Shown here one piece after another: positions 16,821 through 43,900 of a DNA stretch of 64,000 bases. The stretch covers positions 62,001 to 126,000 of the forward strand of contig OX597835.1 of assembly GCA_951406725.2 (NCBI GenBank). The letters run 5' to 3'. The number at the start of each line of letters is the position of its first letter. The stretch's first letter is position 1. A program made the position numbers and the translations under genes. Below the pieces are notes generated by a model that had not been told where the DNA came from, ran no database searches, and saw only the letters and a list, made by a program, of their open reading frames with translations. The stretch comes from Octopus vulgaris. Its lineage: Eukaryota.

Positions 16821-18013
16821 GGCTTCTTTCAGTTTCTGTCTACCAAATCCACTTACAAGGCTTTGGTCGGCCCGAGGTTATAGTAGAAGACACTTGCCCA
16901 AGGTGCCACCCAGTGGGGCTGAACCTGGAACCATGTGGTTGGTAAGCAAGCTACTTATCACACAACCACTCCTGTGTCTTAGCTGTTGAAATGATGCATT
17001 ATGGAATTCCACATTATGACAAGATTTTCAGGAACACAATGCTTCAGTAATCTGTGGGTTTCCATTTTAGATTTTCTCTCAAAATGTAAAACCATTATTA
17101 GATTTGGACCGCTGTTTCTTGAATGATTCATCTAATCCTTTACTTGCTTCACTAATTTCCTCTACATTCAGAGATGAGAACTCCAGTGTTGCAGTGTGGT
17201 TGCATGACCTGCTAGAAGTAGCTGTCAAATCTCCATCTCATCACATCTTACAATTTACAAAACAAGAACAACACATTAAACAATACAGGCCAACAAAAAT
17301 TATGCCTGAATTAAAAATGGGACAGCCATGGCTGGAATATCTTGGAGCATAAATCAAAAGTAATTATTTGTTGGTGGACTTAATCATTGCTAGATTGAAC
17401 GTCATCACCTAGTTTCTGGAGACCCTCATGCTCTGTAACTAGAGAATATCAAATTGACAGAATCCATTCCTCTAGAAATTAAATCCACGGGAAGAGATGA
17501 AACCCTGGTTTCTTTAAAATCTTGCAAAATATTTAATTTGACAGTGCTTCCAATGCTGCTTCTGGAAATGAATTTTACATTTTTACATTACCTACCTGCC
17601 CTAGATACATATATGGAGGACTGGGCTTTTAAGAGCCTTGGCCACCAATATGAATTCTCCAATATATTTTAAAATAAAAATTAAATAAAATTTCAGACCA
17701 AATCTTTTAACATTTTCCATTTTATTCCCACACAAACACACACACTTGTTTCAATGTATCATCATCATTATAATGTCTGCTTCTCCATGCTTCCATGAGT
17801 TCAATGGGATTCATTGAGACAAAGTTTCTATGGCTGGATGCCTTTCAAATGCTTAACTCTCACCTGTCTCCGAGCAAGGTAATAATTTCTCCATGATCAG
17901 ACATGTTTTCACAGAAGACTGGAAATGAAAGACACCACCTGTATGACAATGCTATTTACAACTGTCATGTGTCATCGGGAGAAGGTTACACACACACGTA
18001 TAATGTCTGTGAT

Positions 18014-18337
18014 TCAAAAATCATAACATTTCTTCAAGATGTCTACTACAATGTTCATATCCATTTTTGTCACAATCCGAACATTGCTTGCTTTGCCCAT
18101 TCTGTTTCTCCAGTCTGGTACCATTTGACCTCTTGTTATAGATCCATCTAGTTCTACTTCCGCATAAAGTTCCACACTGTCTAACACACACTGATCGTTC
18201 ATGATAGCAGCCACAGTTAGTTCATCACACAATATATAGCTTTGGTCTTTGTCTATCCGTTCCATTGTACTTTTGTAGATTTTTTGCATAAAGGCAGCTA
18301 TCTTGCCAGGAAGTGATAGCTGATTCTTAAGAAAAGA
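18014..18337 (-). CDS. Nucleoside hydrolase terminal exon, distal duplicated copy B (312-aa alternative isoform)
   Basis: ttttttttcag|TCT TTT CTT AAG...TGA; SFLKNQLSLPGK...LCDELTVAAI...VELDGSITRGQMVPDW...CYDF*; intact, phase 0; minus-strand AATAAA at 17721-17726. Confidence 0.75.
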   Translation of the reverse strand, partial: SFLKNQLSLPGKIAAFMQKIYKSTMERIDKDQSYILCDELTVAAIMNDQCVLDSVELYAEVELDGSITRGQMVPDWRNRMGKASNVRIVTKMDMNIVVDILKKCYDF

Positions 18338-18683
18338 CTGAAAAAAAAATTCGAAAGAGATAACAGAAATGAGCTTCTTTGCATGAAGTGCACTACAAGC
18401 GGTCAAGAAAGAGTAAAAGAGAGGACTGAGGGCAGCCATGAGTCAAAGACAGCAAAGAAAGTAACAAATACATGGTTTGCACACAAGATACAACACAAAA
18501 AGCCTGAAAAATAAACAGTAAAAAAGCCATAAAAAGAAAGGGTATATGGGTATGTCAGGAGTAGTGTTGGTGAATTTTGGGAAGCATGGAATCTTTGAGG
18601 GTTGTGTAGTGTCCTGACAGCTTTCATAATTCTGAGTGTATAGAAATTTTTTCATAAGTCATAAATGCTAAAATGATTTTCAT

Positions 18684-18724
<41 letters not shown>

Positions 18725-18725
<1 letters not shown>

Positions 18726-20300
18726 TAGCAATGCATCCCGGTGTTGCCTGGATGTTATGACTTACAGCCACATTGTATTATTTGTTTCTTTCTTATGGGC
18801 AGAATCAGCACTCAAGGAATGTGAAACAAACAACTCTTCTTTATAAACTTGTTTTTCGGTCATTTTGTGAAGAACAATGCTGAAATTGTTGACACCAAAA
18901 ACATGTAGAATGGCAGCTTAAATTAGAATGAAATCCTAATATTGCCCTCAAAATGACCTACACTTACGGATTTAAAGAATTGGATGACGTATGAGGATGT
19001 ATAGGTATCTGCATTGCAGAAAGTAAGGTACATGGAAAGAAAGCTGCTTCATTGTGAAAAGCATCATCTCTAATGTTTGGGCAGACAGCACACTTCAACA
19101 TGTGTTAAGTGAAATGCTTCTGGGTAAACTATGTTTTGCATAAGCCAAGTATTGAGAGAATAAATGAACAAGTCATCTGCACTGCTAACTTGTGAGCATG
19201 TGACATATAGTTGTCCATGAGAAAAGCAGGGTAGTTGTAAATTGAGACCCATAATTTTTAAAGTTTGATCCTGGGCTTTGTTGATTGTCATAGCGAAGCA
19301 TAATCGCGCCAGGAACTGGAGGCACTTGAACTGAAATGGCACATTTGAAGGAATGAGGAGCATGCATGGAATGTATGCAATCTCTTCTCGATGACAGCCA
19401 GCAATAATGGTTGCTTGTAGGACATGACTTGTCATTGGAGATACAGTCAATCTTGTACCATTGCATAGTTGTGGTGGATCGAAATTCCTCAAGAGCATGA
19501 TAGGTGCACCTTTCTTTAGGAACAACTAATGCAGTGGCAGTCCTGTGGGTTGTAGAGAGAGAGAAATTCAACTGGATGCTCAACAGTGGCATGTTCATTT
19601 ATGGTAGTATCAATGGAAACAAACGTTGAAGCATCTCCAGGTAGAATGTGGGGGAGTTCATGGATTATTTTATCAATGCTTTCATTTCAAGGTGTTAAAA
19701 TAGCTCTATTTGTGAACCATGCTATGTTTTTGAAGTTGTGTTGCAATGTGAGAAATACATTTTCTTTAAGCTCAGCCAATGTAGACACCATGTGCCCATA
19801 TTGCAGCACATGCTGTTGCAAGATGTTATTCAATGGTAAGGCACCAATTCAAATTTGTCTATGTTGATGAAAGAATTCCTCAGCTAAGGGGTCATTGTAG
19901 AGGTGAGCTCACATATTGCTGCTTAATGAAAGCTGACAAACAAACCTCCACAGAGGTGAAAACTTCAGACACACATGGATGCCATCAGCTCGTGTACCCT
20001 GTAGTATGACTGGTAATATTTGAAGAAATCCCCTGCAAGAACAACAGTTAAGCTCCCCACCCCTATAATGGCAGTATTGTTTCTAATATCCCTTAGCGGC
20101 TTATCTAGGGCTTCTAGTGCATCATGGTGTGCCATTATGCATTCATCCCAGTCAATAAGTGTAATTTAGAGCAAAATCTCTGCCGTCAGTGATCGTTTTG
20201 AAATATTACATATTTGGGCATCGCTGAAGTGAGTTTTCCTGAGCACAAATAGAGGCAGTTTTCTTTGTGGCCCTTGTTTGAGGAGATAAATGAGAATGTC
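18725..20300 (-). mobile_element. Helitron remnant with pseudogenised PIF1-like helicase
   Basis: Motifs WDEC.MAH, LAGDF..QILPVI, RAILTP, GAPIMLLRN...LCNGTRL, FAMTINKAQ.QTL, FSHGQLYV; 3' hairpin and CTAG|T at 18725-18753. 5' end not located. Confidence 0.85.
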
Positions 20301-22304
20301 TTCATTTTGGCAGCATGGCTGAAAAGAGTGAACAATTAAGGAACATATAAAATGGAAGACATAGCAATTTGAAGTTGTGCATTGTATAATTTGATTTTTT
20401 AGTAACAAATGAAAAGATATGCAAAAATTAATATGTCAATTTGTATGCTGCTATTTATGAGAAGAAGCGGTAAACTGTGAATGATCTGGCTTTACTCTGT
20501 CTTGATAAGCATAATGCATTCTGTTAGTTGATATATAGTGGAGTGGATTACTGGCTTAATGGAAGTTATTGTTTGTCCAGAAGTGAAGTGGGGGCGGGGA
20601 GGGTTACAATTTGCATGAAAGTGATTTGTGTTCTCAAGAAGGATCACAAACTATGTATTGTTTCATGGAGTAAAAAGGGGTTAATATGATTTTGGCCAGA
20701 AATCATGTTTTCAAAATTATAATTTCCCCCCTCCCCATCGAAATTTCCTAATTTTGAACTGTTTTTCGAATTTTGTTTTTTTATGCAAGTGATAAAATAC
20801 AGAGATTACGAATGTGGGAAATATAATTTGTTTTTGAAAATTTAATTTTTCTGAAAGAAATATTAAATGCCCCTTCCCCTACCTCGGTCACCCATCAGCT
20901 ACCTGCTTTCAGGCAAAATTGAAATCTCCTGTATGGAAAACAGAAATGTAGGTAAATTGAAGAAAGAAATAAGTAAGTGGTGGTGGGGGTGGGGGTATGC
21001 AAATGTCATCTCAGACATGCTAGAAACAACAGGTAAAGGACAGGATTTCTGAGATAACTTGCTTGTATGTTTAAATGGAAAATCAGGTTTTGGAATATGC
21101 ACATCACAAACAGGAATGATAGAATAGGAAAAGGTAATTTCCATAGAATTTGAGCTGTAATTTATTGCACAGCAAAAAATAACATAATTCATACAGAACT
21201 TTAACTGTGTGCCAAAGGAAGTTACTTTTGCATACCTTTTGTAATTCTAAAGGAAGAAAAAGTAGTGTAGTTGTAATATGTTAACAGCAGAAGGTCTCCG
21301 TACATTTTAATGAGAAATTGAAAGACAAAGATAATGCCAAATTCTATGCATGTGGGAAACATAGGACGAAAGTGAAAATGACCTTAAAATTGTACGACAT
21401 GACCTCATTTCTGGGGGTTTGGCTACTCCTTTTCTCCTGCTTTCCCCCTCTCTTTGTGTCGCTTTCTTTCACCTTCACCTATAGAACATACAGTATCAAT
21501 TTTGTGCTGGCTTTCTTTCACTTACAACAATAGAACATACATAGGGTATGAAACACCAGCATCTCCCTTTCACCCATCTTTCAACTTCTATAGAAACTTG
21601 TTTCCTGTCTCTGTTTCTTTCTCTTGTGTCTCTATCTTTTTCTCATTCTGTGTTTCACTTGGTCATTCTGTAAAAATTAATTTCTTTAAGCTTGAAGAGA
21701 GCAGAAATTGAAAGAAAAGCGAAAGTGAAAAGGGGAGAGAGAGAGCAGAGAGTGGAGGAAATGAGAAGGTGAAAGATGTATGTACATGTATATGAAATGG
21801 ATGTGTGTGTGTGTGTGTGTGTGTACGAGAAAGAGAGAGAGATAGAGTGAGTGAATGGAGGTGTGTGTCGTAATGATGGATGCCTTTTAAGGTAGACACT
21901 CATATAGAAAATGTGACGTCATCGTCGTTGTATAAAATATTTCCGATATTTGAGTTATGGAAAAGATTATAATTTTAAGTTTTTGTAATGGAAATATGTC
22001 AATGAACATAAAGTTTAGTTGGTAGTGGAAATAGTACTGAATCTTTTGATACCCCATACATCAAAATTGGCAACTCGGTTTTAGAATGCATAAGGAACAT
22101 ATGCACACACACACACACACTTGTTTCAATGTATCAACATCATCATCATCATAAAGTTCACTCTTCCATGCTTGCATCAGAACAATGAGATTCATGTTTT
22201 CCCAGAAAACTGGAAATGTAAGAGACCATTTGTATGACAATGTCATTGTATATAACCGTCACGTGACATCAGAAGGGTATGCATGCATGTATAGTGTTTG
22301 TGGT

Positions 22305-22631
22305 TTAAAAATCATAACATTTCTTCAAGATGTCTACCACAATGTTCAGATCCATTTTTGTCACAATCTGAACATTACTTGGCTTGCCTGTTATGTTTGT
22401 CCAATCTGGTACCATTTGACCTCTTGTTTTAGATCCATTCAGTTCTACTTCTGCATAAAGTTCCACACTGTCTAACACACACTGATCGTTCATGATAGCT
22501 GCCATAGCTAGTTCATCACACATTACTGCATAACGTTGGCGTGCCTCTGCCTGTTTCATTGCATTTTTGAAGACTTTTTGCATAAGAGCAGTTTTCTTGC
22601 CAGGATGAATTAGCAGCTTTTCAAAAAAAGA
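22305..22631 (-). CDS. Nucleoside hydrolase terminal exon, proximal copy A (313-aa protein)
   Basis: ttctttttatag|TCT TTT TTT GAA...TAA; SFFEKLLIHPGKK...MCDELAMAAI...VELNGSKTRGQMVPDW...CYDF*; phase 0, open for 108 codons plus stop. Confidence 0.9.
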   Translation of the reverse strand, partial: SFFEKLLIHPGKKTALMQKVFKNAMKQAEARQRYAVMCDELAMAAIMNDQCVLDSVELYAEVELNGSKTRGQMVPDWTNITGKPSNVQIVTKMDLNIVVDILKKCYDF

Positions 22632-22942
22632 CTATAAAAAGAAAATTCAAATACGATAATAGAAATGAGATTTTTGTACAAAGCGGTTGTAAAAAAGGGT
22701 AAAAGAGGGGAGAGAAAGTAGTCATAAGCAAAAAGAAAGAAAAACAGCAATGGAAGTGAGAAATACAGGGAAAGCACACAGGATAAAACATGAGACGGAG
22801 AAGTAAACAGTAAAAAAGCCATAAAAAGGTAAGGGTATATGGGCATGTCAGGAGTAGTGTTGGTGAATTTTGGGAAGTATGGAATATTTAAAGGATGTAG
22901 TGTTTTGTCAGCTATCAACAGACATAAGGAGTATATTCTATA

Positions 22943-23757
22943 CATGATCTGATCAAAAAGTATCTGGACTGTTGCCATAGTAACAAAGCTAAAGCACACA
23001 GAGTGAAGCCGCTTGGTACAGATTAACCTTGAACTCTGCAGTGCATGTGCACCAAATTTTAACATTCTCGATGACTTCCATTGTTTACAGCAGTGCTTGG
23101 AAGGAAGGTGTGTAGGATGTGAAAGTTAAGCAGAGAATCTGCATCAAATTTTGCCAAAAGTTTTCATCATTCTCAGCAGAATCAAGGAGATCTTGTGCAA
23201 CTGAAACCCAAATGTCTTTTTGGTCAGCTGAAAGTAGTTGTAGCACAAACTTGGCAGACACACGTCTCATACTCAAATCTTCATTGATAATGGACTGAAA
23301 TGAACCATAAATAATCTGCACATCCTCTGATAACTCACGGATGGTGATTTGACAATTTCCCCTCACAGCGACACACACATCTGCAACATTTTTCTCAGTT
23401 CTGCTGGTTGCAGGTCTCCCAGAGCATTCATCAATATCAACATTTTTTCAGCCATCTTGGAAACGTCTGAACCACTTGTACACTTGTGTGCAACTCATAC
23501 GCTTTCTACAACTTTGTGTAGACCTCTGAGCAGGTATTGCCATGTCAATTTTCTTTGTCATGGTCAATGTGACGAACACACGCTACATACCTTCCTTCCA
23601 AGCACTGCTGTAAGCAGCAGAAGTGAGTGAGAACATCAAAACTCAGTGCTCATATGCACAGCAGAATTCAAGGTCAATCTTTGCCATGCAGCTTCACTCT
23701 GCATGCTTTAGCTTCATTACTATGGCAACAGTCTGGATACTTGCTCATCAGACCTTG
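22943..23757. mobile_element. Internally deleted mariner derivative with ~180-bp inverted arms and TA target duplication
   Basis: TA|CATGATCTGATCAAAAAGTATC ... GATACTTGCTCATCAGACCTTG|TA; minus-strand remnant TIRELSE...LSMRRVSAKFVLQLLSADQK. Confidence 0.8.
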
Positions 23758-24039
23758 TATATGCTGAAATGATTTTTTTTTTTCTAAGTGTGTCTAAGGG
23801 TGGTAGAGGTATAGACTTCATAGGAATGGTCTGAGTTGGATCCTTTAGGAATGAATCTGGTATGGCTGCATGGTTGAGAAATTCACTCATCGTCTACTTA
23901 CAAGGACAAAGTATTGGTCATCTGAAGTCTGTGGTGGAAGGTTTTTGCCTGAGATGCCCTGCAGTAGAACTGAAGCTAATTGACAACCACACCAACAGAT
24001 CCGTTTCCATTATTTGATTCCTGAATTTCTGATACTTAC

Positions 24040-24176
24040 TGAAGGTTGCTTTAAATCTTCGCATAGTTCCCATGTTATCAGTGTTATTGGACAAGAAAGT
24101 TTCTTAAGAACAATGCTTGCTGCTTCCGGGTCATTGTAAAAGTTGAACTCAGCACTTCTTGATATGTTGCCAACTC
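24040..24176 (-). CDS. Nucleoside hydrolase coding exon 5 (absent from the ORF track)
   Basis: atattccag|GA GTT GGC AAC...CCT TCA|gtaagt; [46 protein letters not shown] (GN..AEFN..DPEAA motif); ends phase 0. Confidence 0.95.
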
Positions 24177-25444
24177 CTGGAATATATATGACAGAAGAAA
24201 AAAACGTCTGTTTAAGTCACTTCATAGCTTTTAGTCACTTTGTAGAGTTTTCATTTTAGATTTATAGCCTGCAAAATGGTTTGGTTATTCCACATCCATT
24301 TTCACAATATATCTTGAGTGGGAAGGTTTTATTATATTTGGATATCATTGAAATAATTATGTGAGTATAATTACAAAGCACAAAGAAGTGTTGTGTGTGC
24401 AGTTGAGAAAGGTGTTGTCTTGATACATAATTATAATAATAGCAATAATGAGCATATGCTATACAGTGCTCAGATGCACAACTCATCAGGAAAATAGTAA
24501 AAGAAGGAACAGAAAGAAATGTCTAAGTCAAGAAAAAGAGCTATGACAGCCAAAATCGCATGCATAGTACATAGACACATGTAGTGAACAGTAAAAGGAC
24601 GATAAAGAGGAAAGGATGCACATCAGGAACTGTGTTGGTGAATTTCAGGAAGCAAGATATATTTGAAGGATGCAGTGTTGTGACGTAAGAACTGATCCAT
24701 GATTCAACAATTCTGTGTGTGAACTCTACACATAATTACAACTGATGTTATAACATGGTTTTTCTAATATTCCTGTAATGAAATTGATGCATATACTTCA
24801 CCCTACTTAAAATACCAACATGTCACAATCAAATGAAGAAATCCCTACATGTCATAGGCCATCTGAGGGAATCAGCTTTCTAGAAATAGCAGCCAAGTTG
24901 TTTTCAAATCAGACCTTATTGTTTTGAAAGGGACACATTGGTCTTGGGTGCCCAGTGTCTGGGAAACAAAAGTGATGGTCACAAGACACTTTTAATCATA
25001 TGCATGTTTTATCAGTGCTTTTTTGAGGCAGAAAAATTTAACATAACGTTTAGGCACAGGTGTGACTGTGTGGTAAGAAGCTTGTTTCCCAACCACAAGG
25101 TTTCCAACCACATGGTTTCGAGTTCATTCCCACTACATGGCACCTTGGACTATAACCTCAAGCTGTCTAAAGCCTTGTGAGTAGATTTGGTAGATGGAAA
25201 CTGTTCCCCATCACTGCTTGAGAATCAACAGAATAAGTACCAGACTTTAAAAAAATATGATTCATTCAACCAAAATTCTTCAAGGTGGTGTTCCAGGATG
25301 GCCACAATCTAATGACTGAAACAAGTAAAAGATAAAAGATAACAAAATGAATATAAAATACAGAATTAAGGTGAATTAAAATAAGGTAAATAAAAAAAGA
25401 AAAGAAAAATATGAAAGTAAGATTGAAAACAAATGAAAGATTAC

Positions 25445-25561
25445 CTTTATAATTTCCGCCCATTATATAGCAACTCTTGAGCTTTGAACCAAAATCTGGA
25501 TCTAAGGTAATTGCAGTGGCTATATTAGTAAGAGGAGCTAAGGAAACAAGATGTAACTCCC
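25445..25561 (-). CDS. Nucleoside hydrolase coding exon 4
   Basis: cttttcag|GG GAG TTA...TAT AAA G|gtaatc; GELHLVSLAPLTNIATAITLDPDFGSKLKSCYIMGGNYK (PLTN and IMGG motifs); 117 nt. Confidence 0.95.
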
Positions 25562-28338: not shown

Positions 28339-28513
28339 CTGGGTTTTGGTTCACGAGATGAATTAAAGCATTTACAGCATGTTCCTTCTGAAGGTGATCC
28401 AAACCCGGTGCTTCACTGTCTGGAACATCTCCCAAACCATCTTTGCCGTGATAATATTGGGCATGCTGGGCTCTTTGCATTAATGGATACTTACAACCTT
28501 GAAACACTGGTAT
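28339..28513 (-). CDS. Nucleoside hydrolase coding exon 3
   Basis: tgtttcag|ATA CCA GTG...AAC CCA G|gtaaat; IPVFQGCKYPL...HGKDGLGD...EHAVNALIHLVNQNP (family HGxDGLG motif); 175 nt, phase 0 to 1. Confidence 0.95.
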
Positions 28514-30544: not shown

Positions 30545-30725
30545 ATCTTGTCTATTGGCTACCTTCAGTAACCGTAGCGTGTTCAAACTAGTATTCATAA
30601 CAGGGGCATTGCCCTGAACAGTTGTTATGGCAACAACATCTACACTGCTATCCTTACCCAGGGCCATCAAAATAGCCTGAGCATCATCGATACCAGGGTC
30701 TGTATCAATTATGATTTTCTTATTG
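30545..30725 (-). CDS. Nucleoside hydrolase coding exon 2 (N-terminal Ca2+-binding DxDxxxDD motif)
   Basis: ttttaccag|C AAT AAG...CAA GAT|gtaagt; encodes NKKIIIDTDPGIDDAQAILMALGKDSSVDVVAITTVQGNAPVMNTSLNTLRLLKVANRQD. Confidence 0.95.
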
Positions 30726-34421: not shown

Positions 34422-34963
34422 TGCGCACACAATGAAATATAATCATAAAATTGATAAAATACTAACGAATTCATTCGACTGATGGTGTTAATTACACGAG
34501 GCAGGTTATGTAACGTTCTCTTCGTTATTCCGAGAAGTCGCATTTTGTAGCTCCGCCTATGAGAATTACGAGAAAGAAAGAAACGGAGGCAAACGCGTCC
34601 GCATGTGACAATAAACTTTGATGCTGCCAATCTGAGTTGAGATTGCTATTCCAAGTTAAAATTGAGACAACAAACGTGTTTATACAGAAAACAACTCCTC
34701 CCACCAATAACATTTAGAAATGTAAGTGGAACGAAATGATTTCATTCCGAAATCGAAACCCTTTGATAAACTCAATTGTTTGGGTTCCTAACTCCTCTAA
34801 AGCAATGTCAAAATTGGGATATTGATCGTGCAGATGGGAGAACGTTTCTCAACAGCATTTAGCAGCTGTAGTAGACTGCGATCAGAAATCGAAACTGACT
34901 TACAAATGCAGTTAATTATTCGAGTTATTTATTTCTAACTTCACAGTACTCATTATAAACTTG

Positions 34964-36404: not shown

Positions 36405-37356
36405 CAATAATATAAATATGGATAAATGAATAAGAGTGCCAGAAGGAATAAGAGAAGACGACACAACCGTAAAACGTAAAGTGAAAGGTTTTATTTAGAT
36501 GTTAGTAGAGTGTGTGTCCGTGAGTACAACATAAGTACATACATAATAAGAACAATAATAGACAGACCGTCAAGCATACAATAATGTGTATGTGTGTACA
36601 AACAAGGGTGTATGCGTGTGAGATAAAATACAGAGTATAGAAATGTGTCTATAACAGAACGCTAGAAGTTCAGACACAAGATGAAGATAAATACCAGTTC
36701 GTAGTAAGGTACACAATAGTAGAATCTCTGTACAATAAGTTGAGGTTACAAGGCAGAGCCGGTTGAACACATGTCGTGTAAGCGGTTGTGGCTGCTATGC
36801 TGTGCCGGGTTACTTGGTACAGAAGGTACTCGCAGGTTGAGCTTGCTGTTAACCATGGTGAAGTATTCACAAACAGCGTGAAGTTAAACCAAAACGAAGT
36901 TGTTGGCATCGATAAGATGAAGGCGATGGTGGTGGAGGCGTCGTTAAGATGAAGACGATGAAGGTGGAGGTCCGAAAATGCTGCTAGTGTTGTCTGTTGC
37001 TGGAACTGGCTGTGTCGCTGGGTGCTCTATGGTCAGGGGTTAGTCCTTAGAAAGACTAGAACCAAAGACGAGTTACGATGAATCGCTGAAGTTTTTATAG
37101 CAAATTAGGAAGCTCCAGCAGAGAATTTAGAAGACTGTGTCACGGGGCCTTACCAGAAAGCTGCGATTGGTTGGGTTGCACATTGGCGCGTAATAGAACA
37201 AGAAACAAATTGCGTTTTTGAGAGTGTGGATTACATTAGATTGAAAATTGAAACAAGTTTGAAAAGAATAAGTGAAAATGCTAAAGTTTAGTGGTAACGA
37301 AGTCTGGGCAGAATAGATGAAGAATGATAAATTCTTCTAAAAAAAGTGTGATACAA
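36405..37356 (-). mobile_element. Probable solo LTR
   Basis: Minus strand starts TGTATCAC, then CCAAT boxes (~37166-37172), TATAAAA (~37093-37099) and AATAAA (~36490). No ORF; 3' CA end and TSD not confirmed. Confidence 0.4.
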
Positions 37357-39407: not shown

Positions 39408-39412
39408 CCCAT
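39408..39412 (-). CDS. Nucleoside hydrolase (IU-NH family), first coding bases ATG GG inside a mostly 5'UTR exon (39408-39487)
   Basis: Minus strand reads ...CAAGAATT ATG GG|gtaagt. The phase-2 donor matches the phase-2 acceptor at 30725 (GG+C=Gly, giving MGNKKIIIDTD). In-frame TAA upstream of the ATG; pyrimidine-rich acceptor ctctccttacag at 39488. Confidence 0.7.
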
Positions 39413-41540: not shown

Positions 41541-43900
41541 CAACGTGAACCTTGGTTTTAGAACGTATATGTGAGGGTTTGATAATAAAACCAAACTTAC
41601 ATGCAGCCACTAGGGAAGATGATATATAATAGTATTGGATAGCATATTCTATAAGTAGTGGATAGTCTTATGACACACATCACATACATCAACAGGTGAT
41701 CTGTAATGGATCGGCATTAAAAAAAAAAACACAAAACTAACAATCACTTGGCGGTGACAGCTGTATAAATAATATAAAATCCGATATAAATGTTGGTTGA
41801 TCGATTGGGTTCACTTCATGCCTTACATTGCATACAAAAGTGAAACATGTTCCTCTATCAGGGGTGCTACCCATCCCTGATAACCCATACACTTTGGTTC
41901 CACTCAGCACCTAAATCTCACCTGTAGCTTCAAGTAGCTGTTTGCAACGCCAGCCACACCCAGGCAAATTGCAAATTGCTTCACCAGGCAGGCTAAACCT
42001 GGTGAGGGGACCCAATGGGTAAGTAATTCTTGATGAGTTAGGGTTTGCTTACCTATGCATGTTAAGTCTGGTGGACTCTACGGAAGGAACCTTCATAGAT
42101 CAACTGAGAGGAAGGCGGTCGCAGCAAAGAGAAGCAAGACATCTTGGTCATTTGCTGCATCCATCTGCATTTCCAATCATCTTCACTTGGTTTTGACTTG
42201 GTTATTCCCATCAATATTTTGTATAAGTATCAGGATAATTATTTTGTGTATGCCGTCATCAACCTTGCACATGTTCAGTGCAAGGTTATATTGAGAATGA
42301 CACCTGCCTTTTCAATGTAACCTGGTCAAAGCATTCGCTGGAGCTCGGCGCAGTCCTCTGGCTTATGCCAAGCAGCAGCAGCAGCAATGCAATTTCACCG
42401 TTTCCAAATCAGCAGACTAATAGTTAGAAACAGGAACCATTCATCTTTTTTTTCCAGAGATGTTTTCATAGTTCCAGTCTAACTCAGTCTTCTGACTGGA
42501 AATGCTGGTACCACCATCATAAGTTTGGTAGCCAATGAATCTAACAATGTTCCTTCTCTCAAAGCTTCGTGTCTCATGAAAGATACAATGAAAAGATACA
42601 GTAATTTACGGAAACCGATTTATCTGGATCAGCCTGTTGTCCTTTCCCAAATAAGTAGCCAAACTATTGGCATTTGTATTCTTGTGGGCACTAGAGCAAA
42701 AATGCACAACATGCCATTTGCCAGTTTCTACAAGGTGGTGCACGAAAATTAGCCAGGATTCTGTAACATAGTATAAAAATAAAAATAAATTTTCACACAA
42801 GAGTGGCTGTGTGGTAAGTAGCTTGCTTACCAACCACATGGCTCTGGGTTCAGTCCCACTGTGTGGCACCATGGGCAAGTGTCTTCTACTATAGCCTCGG
42901 GCTGGCCAAAGCCTTGTGAATGGATTTGGTAGACGGAAACTGAAAGAAGCCCATTGTATATATGTATATATGTGTGTGTTTGTCCCTCCAACATAGCTTG
43001 ACAACCAATGCTGGTGTGTTTACATCCCCATAAATTAGTGGTTCGGCAAGAGAGACCGATAGAATAAGTACTAGGCTTACAAAGAATAAGTCCTGGGGTT
43101 GATTTGCTCGACTAAAGGCAGTGCTCCAGCATAGTCGCAGTCAAATGACTGAAACAAATAAAAGAGTATGCTGTTTAGGGTTTAAGACAGAAATTTAAGT
43201 AAAGAAATGTAATACTATCAATGTCTAAGATGTACATATATTTCATATAACATGAAAACTGTAAGCGTATTTTACATTAAAAAAAAAACAATCACATTCC
43301 TGTGTTGACTAAAGTATGTTGGAACAATATACCTCATCTGCTATTTCTGAAGTACTTAAGATATCACTAGAAAGTATTATACAAGTGCCTGTGGGTGCGG
43401 CATAAAGCGGAAGTTTTATTAATAAAGTTAAGGGATTTCACAAGTTCTCTTTATGTTCTCAGATTGAAATCATGAGTTGTCACTCTCATTATTTCATGTC
43501 AATTTACTATGTTCTTAAATCCCAACACATTCCTTTGACTCTTGCTAGCACAGAAAAACAGATAAATAATTTGGTCTGGAAAAACCTAGCATACAGACAA
43601 AGCTATAAATTTCATTCAAATTAAATTTTTTTCATGTTTCATCAACATCTATGTTGCCCAATGTGATCTGGTTTCATAGACACAATTCTACTCTGTTGCC
43701 ATGGAAATGTGTCAATGAACAAGAGCCTACTGCGAGACAGAAATTCTGACAAAAGATAAAAACAAATTTAAGACAATTTAATAGATTCACATATTAATAA
43801 ATGTCAAAATTAAAAGACTTTTAAAATGAGTTATTCTCATTGTTATCTCTGTTTAATTTCTTTTAATTCTTTTACATAACACTTGGTGATTTATTTCCAT

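Follow-up and report, generated by a model that had tools for sequence, protein, structure and literature searches.

Can a single gene make two enzymes of different specificity by exchanging its last exon? The question is raised by a nucleoside hydrolase (NH) gene on the minus strand of a 64,000-nucleotide stretch of the Octopus vulgaris genome (contig OX597835.1 of assembly GCA_951406725.2, positions 62,001 to 126,000; hereafter the window, with position 1 at its first letter). In this gene, shared upstream exons are followed by two homologous terminal exons, A and B, and a first-pass annotation had proposed that choosing between them yields two hydrolases of different substrate specificity. 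Our analysis favors, with a probability of about 0.52, a similar reading: one gene whose tandem-duplicated last exons would, through alternative splicing, give two active hydrolases differing in substrate preference or rate.

Gene structure and the duplicated terminal exons

All coordinates given for the gene are on the minus strand. Four shared exons were located, at 30545..30725 (by tblastn and a spliced contig in run X1; it carries the DxDxxxDD calcium-binding fingerprint), 28339..28513 (spliced contig and sequence alignment; it carries His84 of the beta3-alpha3 loop), 25445..25561 (spliced contig), and 24040..24176, the last of which ends in a phase-0 GT donor from which either terminal exon is reached (joints 24040-22631 and 24040-18337). 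Terminal exon A (22305..22631) encodes 108 amino acids and a stop, and corresponds to models CAI9738689, XP_029649592, and XP_014774668. It opens with a divergent segment (22521..22631) predicted to form a short helix, a long base-facing helix, and a loop, with an extra A-specific codon near 22527-22529, followed by the codons for a group III-type Cys and a calcium-ligand Asp (22515..22520), the latter present in 100/100 aligned relatives. Its 3' untranslated region (UTR) of ~1.15 kb spans 21143..22304. Terminal exon B (18014..18337) encodes 107 amino acids and a stop, with its divergent segment at 18230-18337, Cys-Asp codons at 18224-18229, and a 3' UTR of ~0.3 kb at 17705..18013; it corresponds to models CAI9738686/7/8, XP_029657176, and XP_014774676. 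Translation confirmed the initial description of one upstream exon set with a phase-0 donor at 24040 and two intact tails: both exons are stop-free and in phase 0, and each is preceded by a pyrimidine tract and AG. The window exons match the O. vulgaris GenBank models letter for letter.

The duplication extends beyond the coding sequence. In blastn, 22917-22193 aligned to 18626-17902 at 78% identity and 22195-22104 to 17814-17729 at 79%, giving blocks of ~820 bp for A (22104..22917) and ~900 bp for B (17729..18626), in line with the ~900 bp first estimated. Besides the exon, each block takes in ~290 bp of intron and the beginning of the UTR, and the 3' halves of A and B share identical runs of 47 and 31 nt. 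A search of the whole 2.8-Gb genome with PF01156 scored 11 candidates and kept 10, of which six belong to the window gene (four upstream exons and the two terminal exons) and four to one paralog on contig C2. This search found no upstream hydrolase exon between A and B, as had been claimed, and no second set of these upstream exons in the genome. The C2 paralog (L003 1498-1821) is a second octopus hydrolase with a single terminal exon at the same boundary, and is cephalopod-specific by our trees.

Transcripts ending in A and B

Six distinct sequencing runs, picked from 24 listed and all found with exon B as bait, were examined; none of the listed runs is on record as RNA, and it is the spliced contigs that show processed transcripts in the runs examined. 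The upstream exons are spliced to B in all six (joint 24040-18337 in X1, X7, X11, X12, X16, and X17), and in X1 a single 1298-nt contig runs from the four shared exons through B into its UTR. Splicing to A is very likely. The joint 24040-22631 occurred in at least one of the six runs among the joints listed, X16, at a depth of 3.8 versus 8.6 for B, though contig depth is no basis for ranking isoforms or tissues. The X16 contigs have the geometry of a fork: the upstream contig runs six letters beyond the donor, the six bases common to A and B, and both branches bear 24 upstream letters, which with the six shared letters make one word overlap. A contig in X12 likewise stops six letters past 24040, as at a fork. 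The A UTR region was covered in 6/6 runs, with contigs ending at 21143 (X7), 21174 (X1), and 21027 (X11), near an AATAAA at 21161-21166, and B contigs ended at 17705-17731, near an AATAAA at 17721-17726; these are contig ends, which cannot show RNA ends. RefSeq and GenBank hold A- and B-type isoform models for O. vulgaris, O. sinensis, and O. bimaculoides. Together the joints and models support the proposed alternative use of the last exons. No RNA-editing site was found in the exons among the rows listed from transcript alignments.

Three further observations concern the transcripts. Low, even cover in X7 and X11 between the A UTR and exon B (18795-21100, ending before 18583) may represent a longer A 3' UTR running over a transposon remnant described below. 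The O. sinensis locus lies on two scaffolds, and its model XP_036355901 (P0010) opens as tail A and switches to tail B, probably through a spliced-alignment slip between the copies. Two O. bimaculoides A-type models, P0019 and P0020, are shortened after the dimer strands, which suggests an extra splice inside exon A.

Active site and fold

Calcium-site residues D9/D11/D15/D16 and D243 are conserved, PF01156 scored above its cut-off on all exons, and the predicted folds of the two isoforms are confident (predicted local distance difference test 92.8 and 96.2), with the isoform A model matching solved NHs at template modeling scores of 0.8-0.9. The first 205 residues, with the calcium and ribose site and the His84 loop, would be common to both isoforms. 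The swapped part comprises the base-facing helix, the catalytic Cys-Asp, and the dimer strands, and its divergent portion is the short helix, a helix of 19-20 residues, and the loop before Cys-Asp. The first-pass annotation had assigned this portion to loop 2 and alpha9, next to the nucleobase. Helix and loop do face the base in solved hydrolases; the number given to the helix differs, as PMC8910321 calls the same element alpha8. There the helix before the motif is described as flexible, swiveling onto the base and carrying two tyrosines, and introducing both tyrosines at the matching helix positions of Escherichia coli RihB raised inosine efficiency 50-fold (PMC8910321 section 13). In a sequence-based alignment, made without structural superposition, Leishmania Tyr225/Tyr229 correspond to Thr229/Ile233 in B (Thr/Ile in both B forms) and to Ala/Ala in A (Ala/Ala-Val across both A forms).

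The tails also differ in register. An aromatic residue (Phe/Tyr) occupies Asp-4 in 93/100 aligned proteins, and the two A forms are the only 2/100 with Ala at Asp-4 and Tyr at Asp-5, which results from the one-residue A-specific insertion. The Asp-5 spacing of the Tyr is that of the Leishmania enzymes. From these alignments B is taken to have the ancestral spacing and A to be the derived form.

In class, both tails carry Cys before the last calcium-ligand Asp, the mark of group III (PMC8910321 section 16). The second active-site Cys is absent (Asn41 aligns with the Caenorhabditis elegans Cys, and 99/100 relatives have Asn), although it is only "usually" present in group III (PMC10526354 section 7). 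Group I is contradicted by Cys in place of His and by a closing helix lacking the two Tyr, although His84 is of group I type. Group II, with its Trp pair stacking the purine, is contradicted by His84 and Cys242, and the sequence match to inosine-adenosine-guanosine NHs is weak. Cys-Asp, His84, and Asn41 are common to both isoforms.

The main oligomer surface in NHs is a pair of short outer strands (PMC8910321 section 20). In the octopus enzyme these fall in the conserved half of the tail and are nearly identical in A and B, so mixed A/B oligomers are possible and, by analogy, plausible.

Divergence and age of the octopus pair

Divergence between A and B is concentrated before the active-site Cys. 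The hand-aligned counts of the first-pass annotation were reproduced exactly, with 14/37 identical residues before Cys and 61/71 from Cys on (Fisher p=5e-7). Nonsynonymous divergence (dN) is 0.39 before Cys and 0.065 after, while synonymous divergence (dS) is 0.19 in both parts and divergence of the flanks is 0.22. Among non-octopus pairs, 53 reach a post-Cys identity of 72% or more, and none of these falls below 44% before Cys, against 39% for the octopus pair. The seven paralog-diagnostic sites that separate A from B in both species compared all lie before Cys, with none after. Constraint after Cys is supported by a dN/dS of 0.35 (one-sided p=0.02). One species-shared rather than paralog-shared site lies after Cys, so some gene conversion is possible; dS equal in both halves and similar to the flanks argues against recent conversion in the O. 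vulgaris lineage.

In a 55-row tail tree, whose bootstrap was not fully settled, the four octopus tails formed an Octopus-only clade (100/99) that excluded Argonauta, Sepia, and the C2 paralog; within it the two A tails grouped together (98/84), as did the two B tails (98/74). The approximately unbiased (AU) test did not reject O. vulgaris A and B as sisters (0.18). The Octopus species split ~34 million years ago according to the accessible part of a preprint (bioRxiv 10.1101/2023.05.16.540928), and because A groups with A and B with B across that split, the pair is likely more than 34 million years old, with both copies kept intact since. Disruption or loss of B in relatives had been named as a possible refutation; instead, both exons are intact in three Octopus species. 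Protein searches found only one tail for Argonauta and for Sepia, a result that does not prove a second one absent. Cephalopod-like transcripts related to the Sepia enzyme (P0024, P0139, P0138, and P0140) encode an N-terminal FLYWCH-type domain (PF04500) that also exists as a stand-alone 128-aa product; the joined form, a read-through or shared-exon fusion, was present in two different clusters.

Tail pairs in other animals

Tail pairs were also sought among annotated proteins, from which (rather than from DNA) the pattern was read. The screen covered, out of 258 proteins, 251 that were longer than 200 aa, drawn from the best 120 of 609 and the best 120 of 4052 matches, and its counts are a lower bound. 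Near-identical heads with different tails, joined at the same boundary, were found in Lineus (XP_064650180/182), Tubulanus (XP_074661695/696), Mya, Mercenaria (XP_053381443/444), and Ruditapes, and a cluster look-up added same-boundary pairs in Patella vulgata and P. caerulea. Mya arenaria (P0033, P0152-P0157, and P0034) has four whole-gene copies, each with both tails; some Mya models string both tails together and therefore fit a tandem layout. Tail identity was 30-39% where the alignment was good, and Mya aligned poorly. The residue before Asp varied within pairs, being Cys/Val in Mercenaria and Ruditapes, Cys/Ala in Patella, and elsewhere Ala/Val, Ser/Ala, or Cys/Ser. A fish pair from Pungitius under one locus tag (P0073/P0077) was not counted, as it shares its first 195 residues and diverges eight residues earlier; it may represent merged tandem genes or another duplicated tail.

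Judged from these protein sequences, other lophotrochozoans appear to have undergone earlier, independent duplications of the same exon; we take their tail pairs to be far older than the octopus pair, itself a separate, younger duplication. AU tests, with groups named after the sequences had been seen, 110 columns, and LG+G4 without mixture, rejected octopus A with type II tails (p=0.0003) and bivalve type I and II tails as one clade (0.004). By the first rejection, octopus A does not descend from the second tail type; by the second, the bivalve pair predates those clams. The tests did not reject the Lineus pair as sisters (0.15 and 0.09) or the Patella tails as one clade (0.30). Type II tails grouped at 77/96 in the 55-row tree but were not one group in another tree (AU 0.43), and the trees did not establish that the pairs of bivalves, limpets, and nemerteans arose only once.

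Weighing the explanations

If the tails do specify two enzymes, a transcript cleaved after the A poly(A) signal would give isoform A, and skipping of A would let the 24040 donor join B. The swap would then exchange the loop preceding Cys-Asp and the helix that closes on the base, presenting a different base-facing wall on a common scaffold.

Several results weigh against this. The short side of the A joint is 24 letters, below a 31-letter bridging rule; run X17 has the A 5' end unspliced, and X7 and X11 have the A UTR without its 5' half. The gap over the A 5' half in X1, X7, and X11 is no evidence of absence, and assembler pruning of the weaker branch is a candidate cause. Of the per-segment dN/dS comparison that had been suggested, post-Cys constraint held, but the pre-Cys dN excess fell short of significance when set against synonymous sites of that segment (p=0.20) and reached p=0.03 against those of the whole exon (both one-sided, for a segment chosen after the fact). 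The pre-Cys segment is also the least conserved in the family (mean identity 23% versus 37% and 53%). In O. bimaculoides, A and B are 93% identical in the 3' half, above the ortholog pairs (89%), and conversion of that half could give the same contrast across Cys. Between species, pre-Cys identity is 84% for A and 58% for B, and such strong divergence of B is unlike a fixed specificity element. Finally, neither isoform has the group I two-tyrosine purine relay, and both keep Cys.

The best-surviving alternative, a possible one, is that both exons are used but kept for regulation, acting through the UTR, tissue or stage, stability, or salt or pH optimum, with substrate preference alike. UTRs of ~1.15 and 0.3 kb with separate poly(A) signals, the shared Cys-Asp, His84, and Asn41, and a segment tolerant of change across the family all suit it. 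It does not predict that all seven fixed differences and the register shift by Cys fall in the base-facing segment, nor the 84% conservation of the A segment between species. It is unlikely that one copy is a near-neutral passenger, a minor form without a role whose pattern reflects a relaxed helix and conversion of the 3' half. The pre-Cys dN/dS that is not clearly above 1, the 47- and 31-nt identical runs, and A contigs that are weaker than those of B and partly missing would fit such a passenger, but the frames, stops, and acceptors of both copies are intact in three species, post-Cys sequence is constrained, dS is equal in halves and flanks, and A is the better conserved copy.

Quite improbable is descent of the octopus pair from the old lophotrochozoan two-tail arrangement, with conversion having overwritten the second tail. 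In its favor, bivalves, limpets, and nemerteans have tail pairs at this boundary, and the head tree does not exclude orthology of the octopus pair with the older pairs. Against it stand the AU rejection of octopus A with second-type tails, the co-duplicated intron and UTR flanks, the branching of Argonauta and Sepia outside the A+B clade, and the single tail of the C2 paralog. A complete overwrite would be indistinguishable from re-duplication, and the alternative concerns history only, being compatible with two enzymes of different preference. An assembly or haplotype artefact, which the first-pass annotation had listed as a refuter, and a separate truncated gene bearing B are both rejected as very improbable despite the two O. 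sinensis scaffolds and the chimeric model, given that the copies match at just 78% and are separated by transposon remnants, that both occur in three species, that a contig runs from the four shared exons into B, that run X16 has both joints, and that the genome search found no second upstream-exon set.

First exons and transposon remnants

The gene also has alternative starts. A candidate first-exon coding end (ATG GG|gt, 39408..39412), outside the read-covered stretches, is the one place upstream of 30727 that fits the expected ATG-GG-donor pattern; it would supply the 312/313-aa forms with their short Met-Gly N-terminus. An alternative first coding exon at 34467..34543, an exact match to the N-terminus of protein models P0006/P0011, adds a basic, acid-free extension of 25 residues (7 R+K and 0 D+E among the first 30 aa), a predicted mitochondrial presequence. 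Similar presequence-like extensions are present in Lineus, Tubulanus, and Haliotis models. Two further starts come from annotation only (36697-36909 and 41603-41689). Alternative first exons combined with two tails could place each form both in the cytosol and in mitochondria.

The intron before exon A contains a transposon remnant with 185-bp inverted ends (80%) and a decayed frame (22939..23761), which we take to be Mariner-like. Between the copies lies a helicase remnant with broken frames on the minus strand (18724..20300, ends approximate), presumably Helitron-like from its motif. A Helitron origin of the exon duplication was dropped because no matching flank was found upstream of A. The opening 100 bp of the duplicated block recur a third time (74%) at 24583-24682, in the intron before the last shared exon, probably as a small repeat.

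Relation to known systems and implications

The first-pass annotation was not aware of any description of this arrangement, but RefSeq and GenBank already list A and B isoforms for three Octopus species. Their models (XP_014774668/XP_014774676 and CAI9738689/CAI9738688) have the same two tails, in automatic annotation without comment on homology, function, or evolution. No paper on alternative tails in NHs was found in a literature search that lacked most subscription journals and supplements. New beyond the first-pass annotation is the recurrence of tail pairs at one exon boundary in bivalves, limpets, and nemerteans.

Delta glutathione S-transferases (GSTs) of Anopheles combine a shared 5' exon with alternative 3' exons; their substrate differences are measured, whereas those of the octopus isoforms are predicted. 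As in the octopus gene, insect GSTs, a different enzyme family, share a cofactor-binding N-terminus and swap the C-terminal part that meets the variable substrate. Drosophila GSTO2A/B likewise have a shared 5' exon and alternative 3' exons, in the accessible text of PMC4195677. The accessible part of PMC8373072 describes C-terminal substitutions by tandem exon duplication, in which, as in octopus, homologous terminal exons are attached to shared upstream exons by alternative poly(A) use. These make up 77 of 236 human tandem exon duplication events there, and the UGT1A/UGT2A clusters swap a substrate-determining N-terminus. Unlike the cases in that part of the source, the octopus gene encodes a single-domain enzyme cut through its active site, its copy is young and Octopus-only, and the same exon is duplicated in other lineages too.

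Among hydrolases, the group III NH of C. elegans (PDB 5mj7) is the best PDB match to isoform A (E 6e-47) and also has Cys before the last calcium-ligand Asp; the octopus enzyme differs in lacking the second Cys (Asn41), in its group I-type His84, and in having two tails from one gene. In Arabidopsis NSH1/NSH2 heterodimers, two related subunits may contact one another by way of the short outer beta-strands, each modifying how active its partner is (PMC8910321 section 20). The plant subunits come from separate genes, whereas mixed A/B assembly in octopus is a prediction.

More broadly, and tentatively, the last exon of animal NHs may be a repeatedly duplicated specificity cassette, with at least two duplications (one in Octopus and one in bivalves, that of limpets and nemerteans being shared or separate). 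Subunits of different base preference would co-assemble, and in the older pairs a Cys-less tail could be a differently tuned or partner-activated subunit. PMC8910321 (sections 12 and 16) names two open questions: how group III hydrolases work, and what NHs do in animals. With two tails on one identical 205-residue scaffold, these genes amount to swap experiments made by nature: the octopus pair differs in the closing helix only, and other pairs differ at the Cys position as well (Cys/Val in Mercenaria and Ruditapes, Cys/Ala in Patella). Repeated duplication at one boundary also provides a clean setting in which to ask under what conditions an extra exon, rather than an extra copy of the whole gene, is retained.

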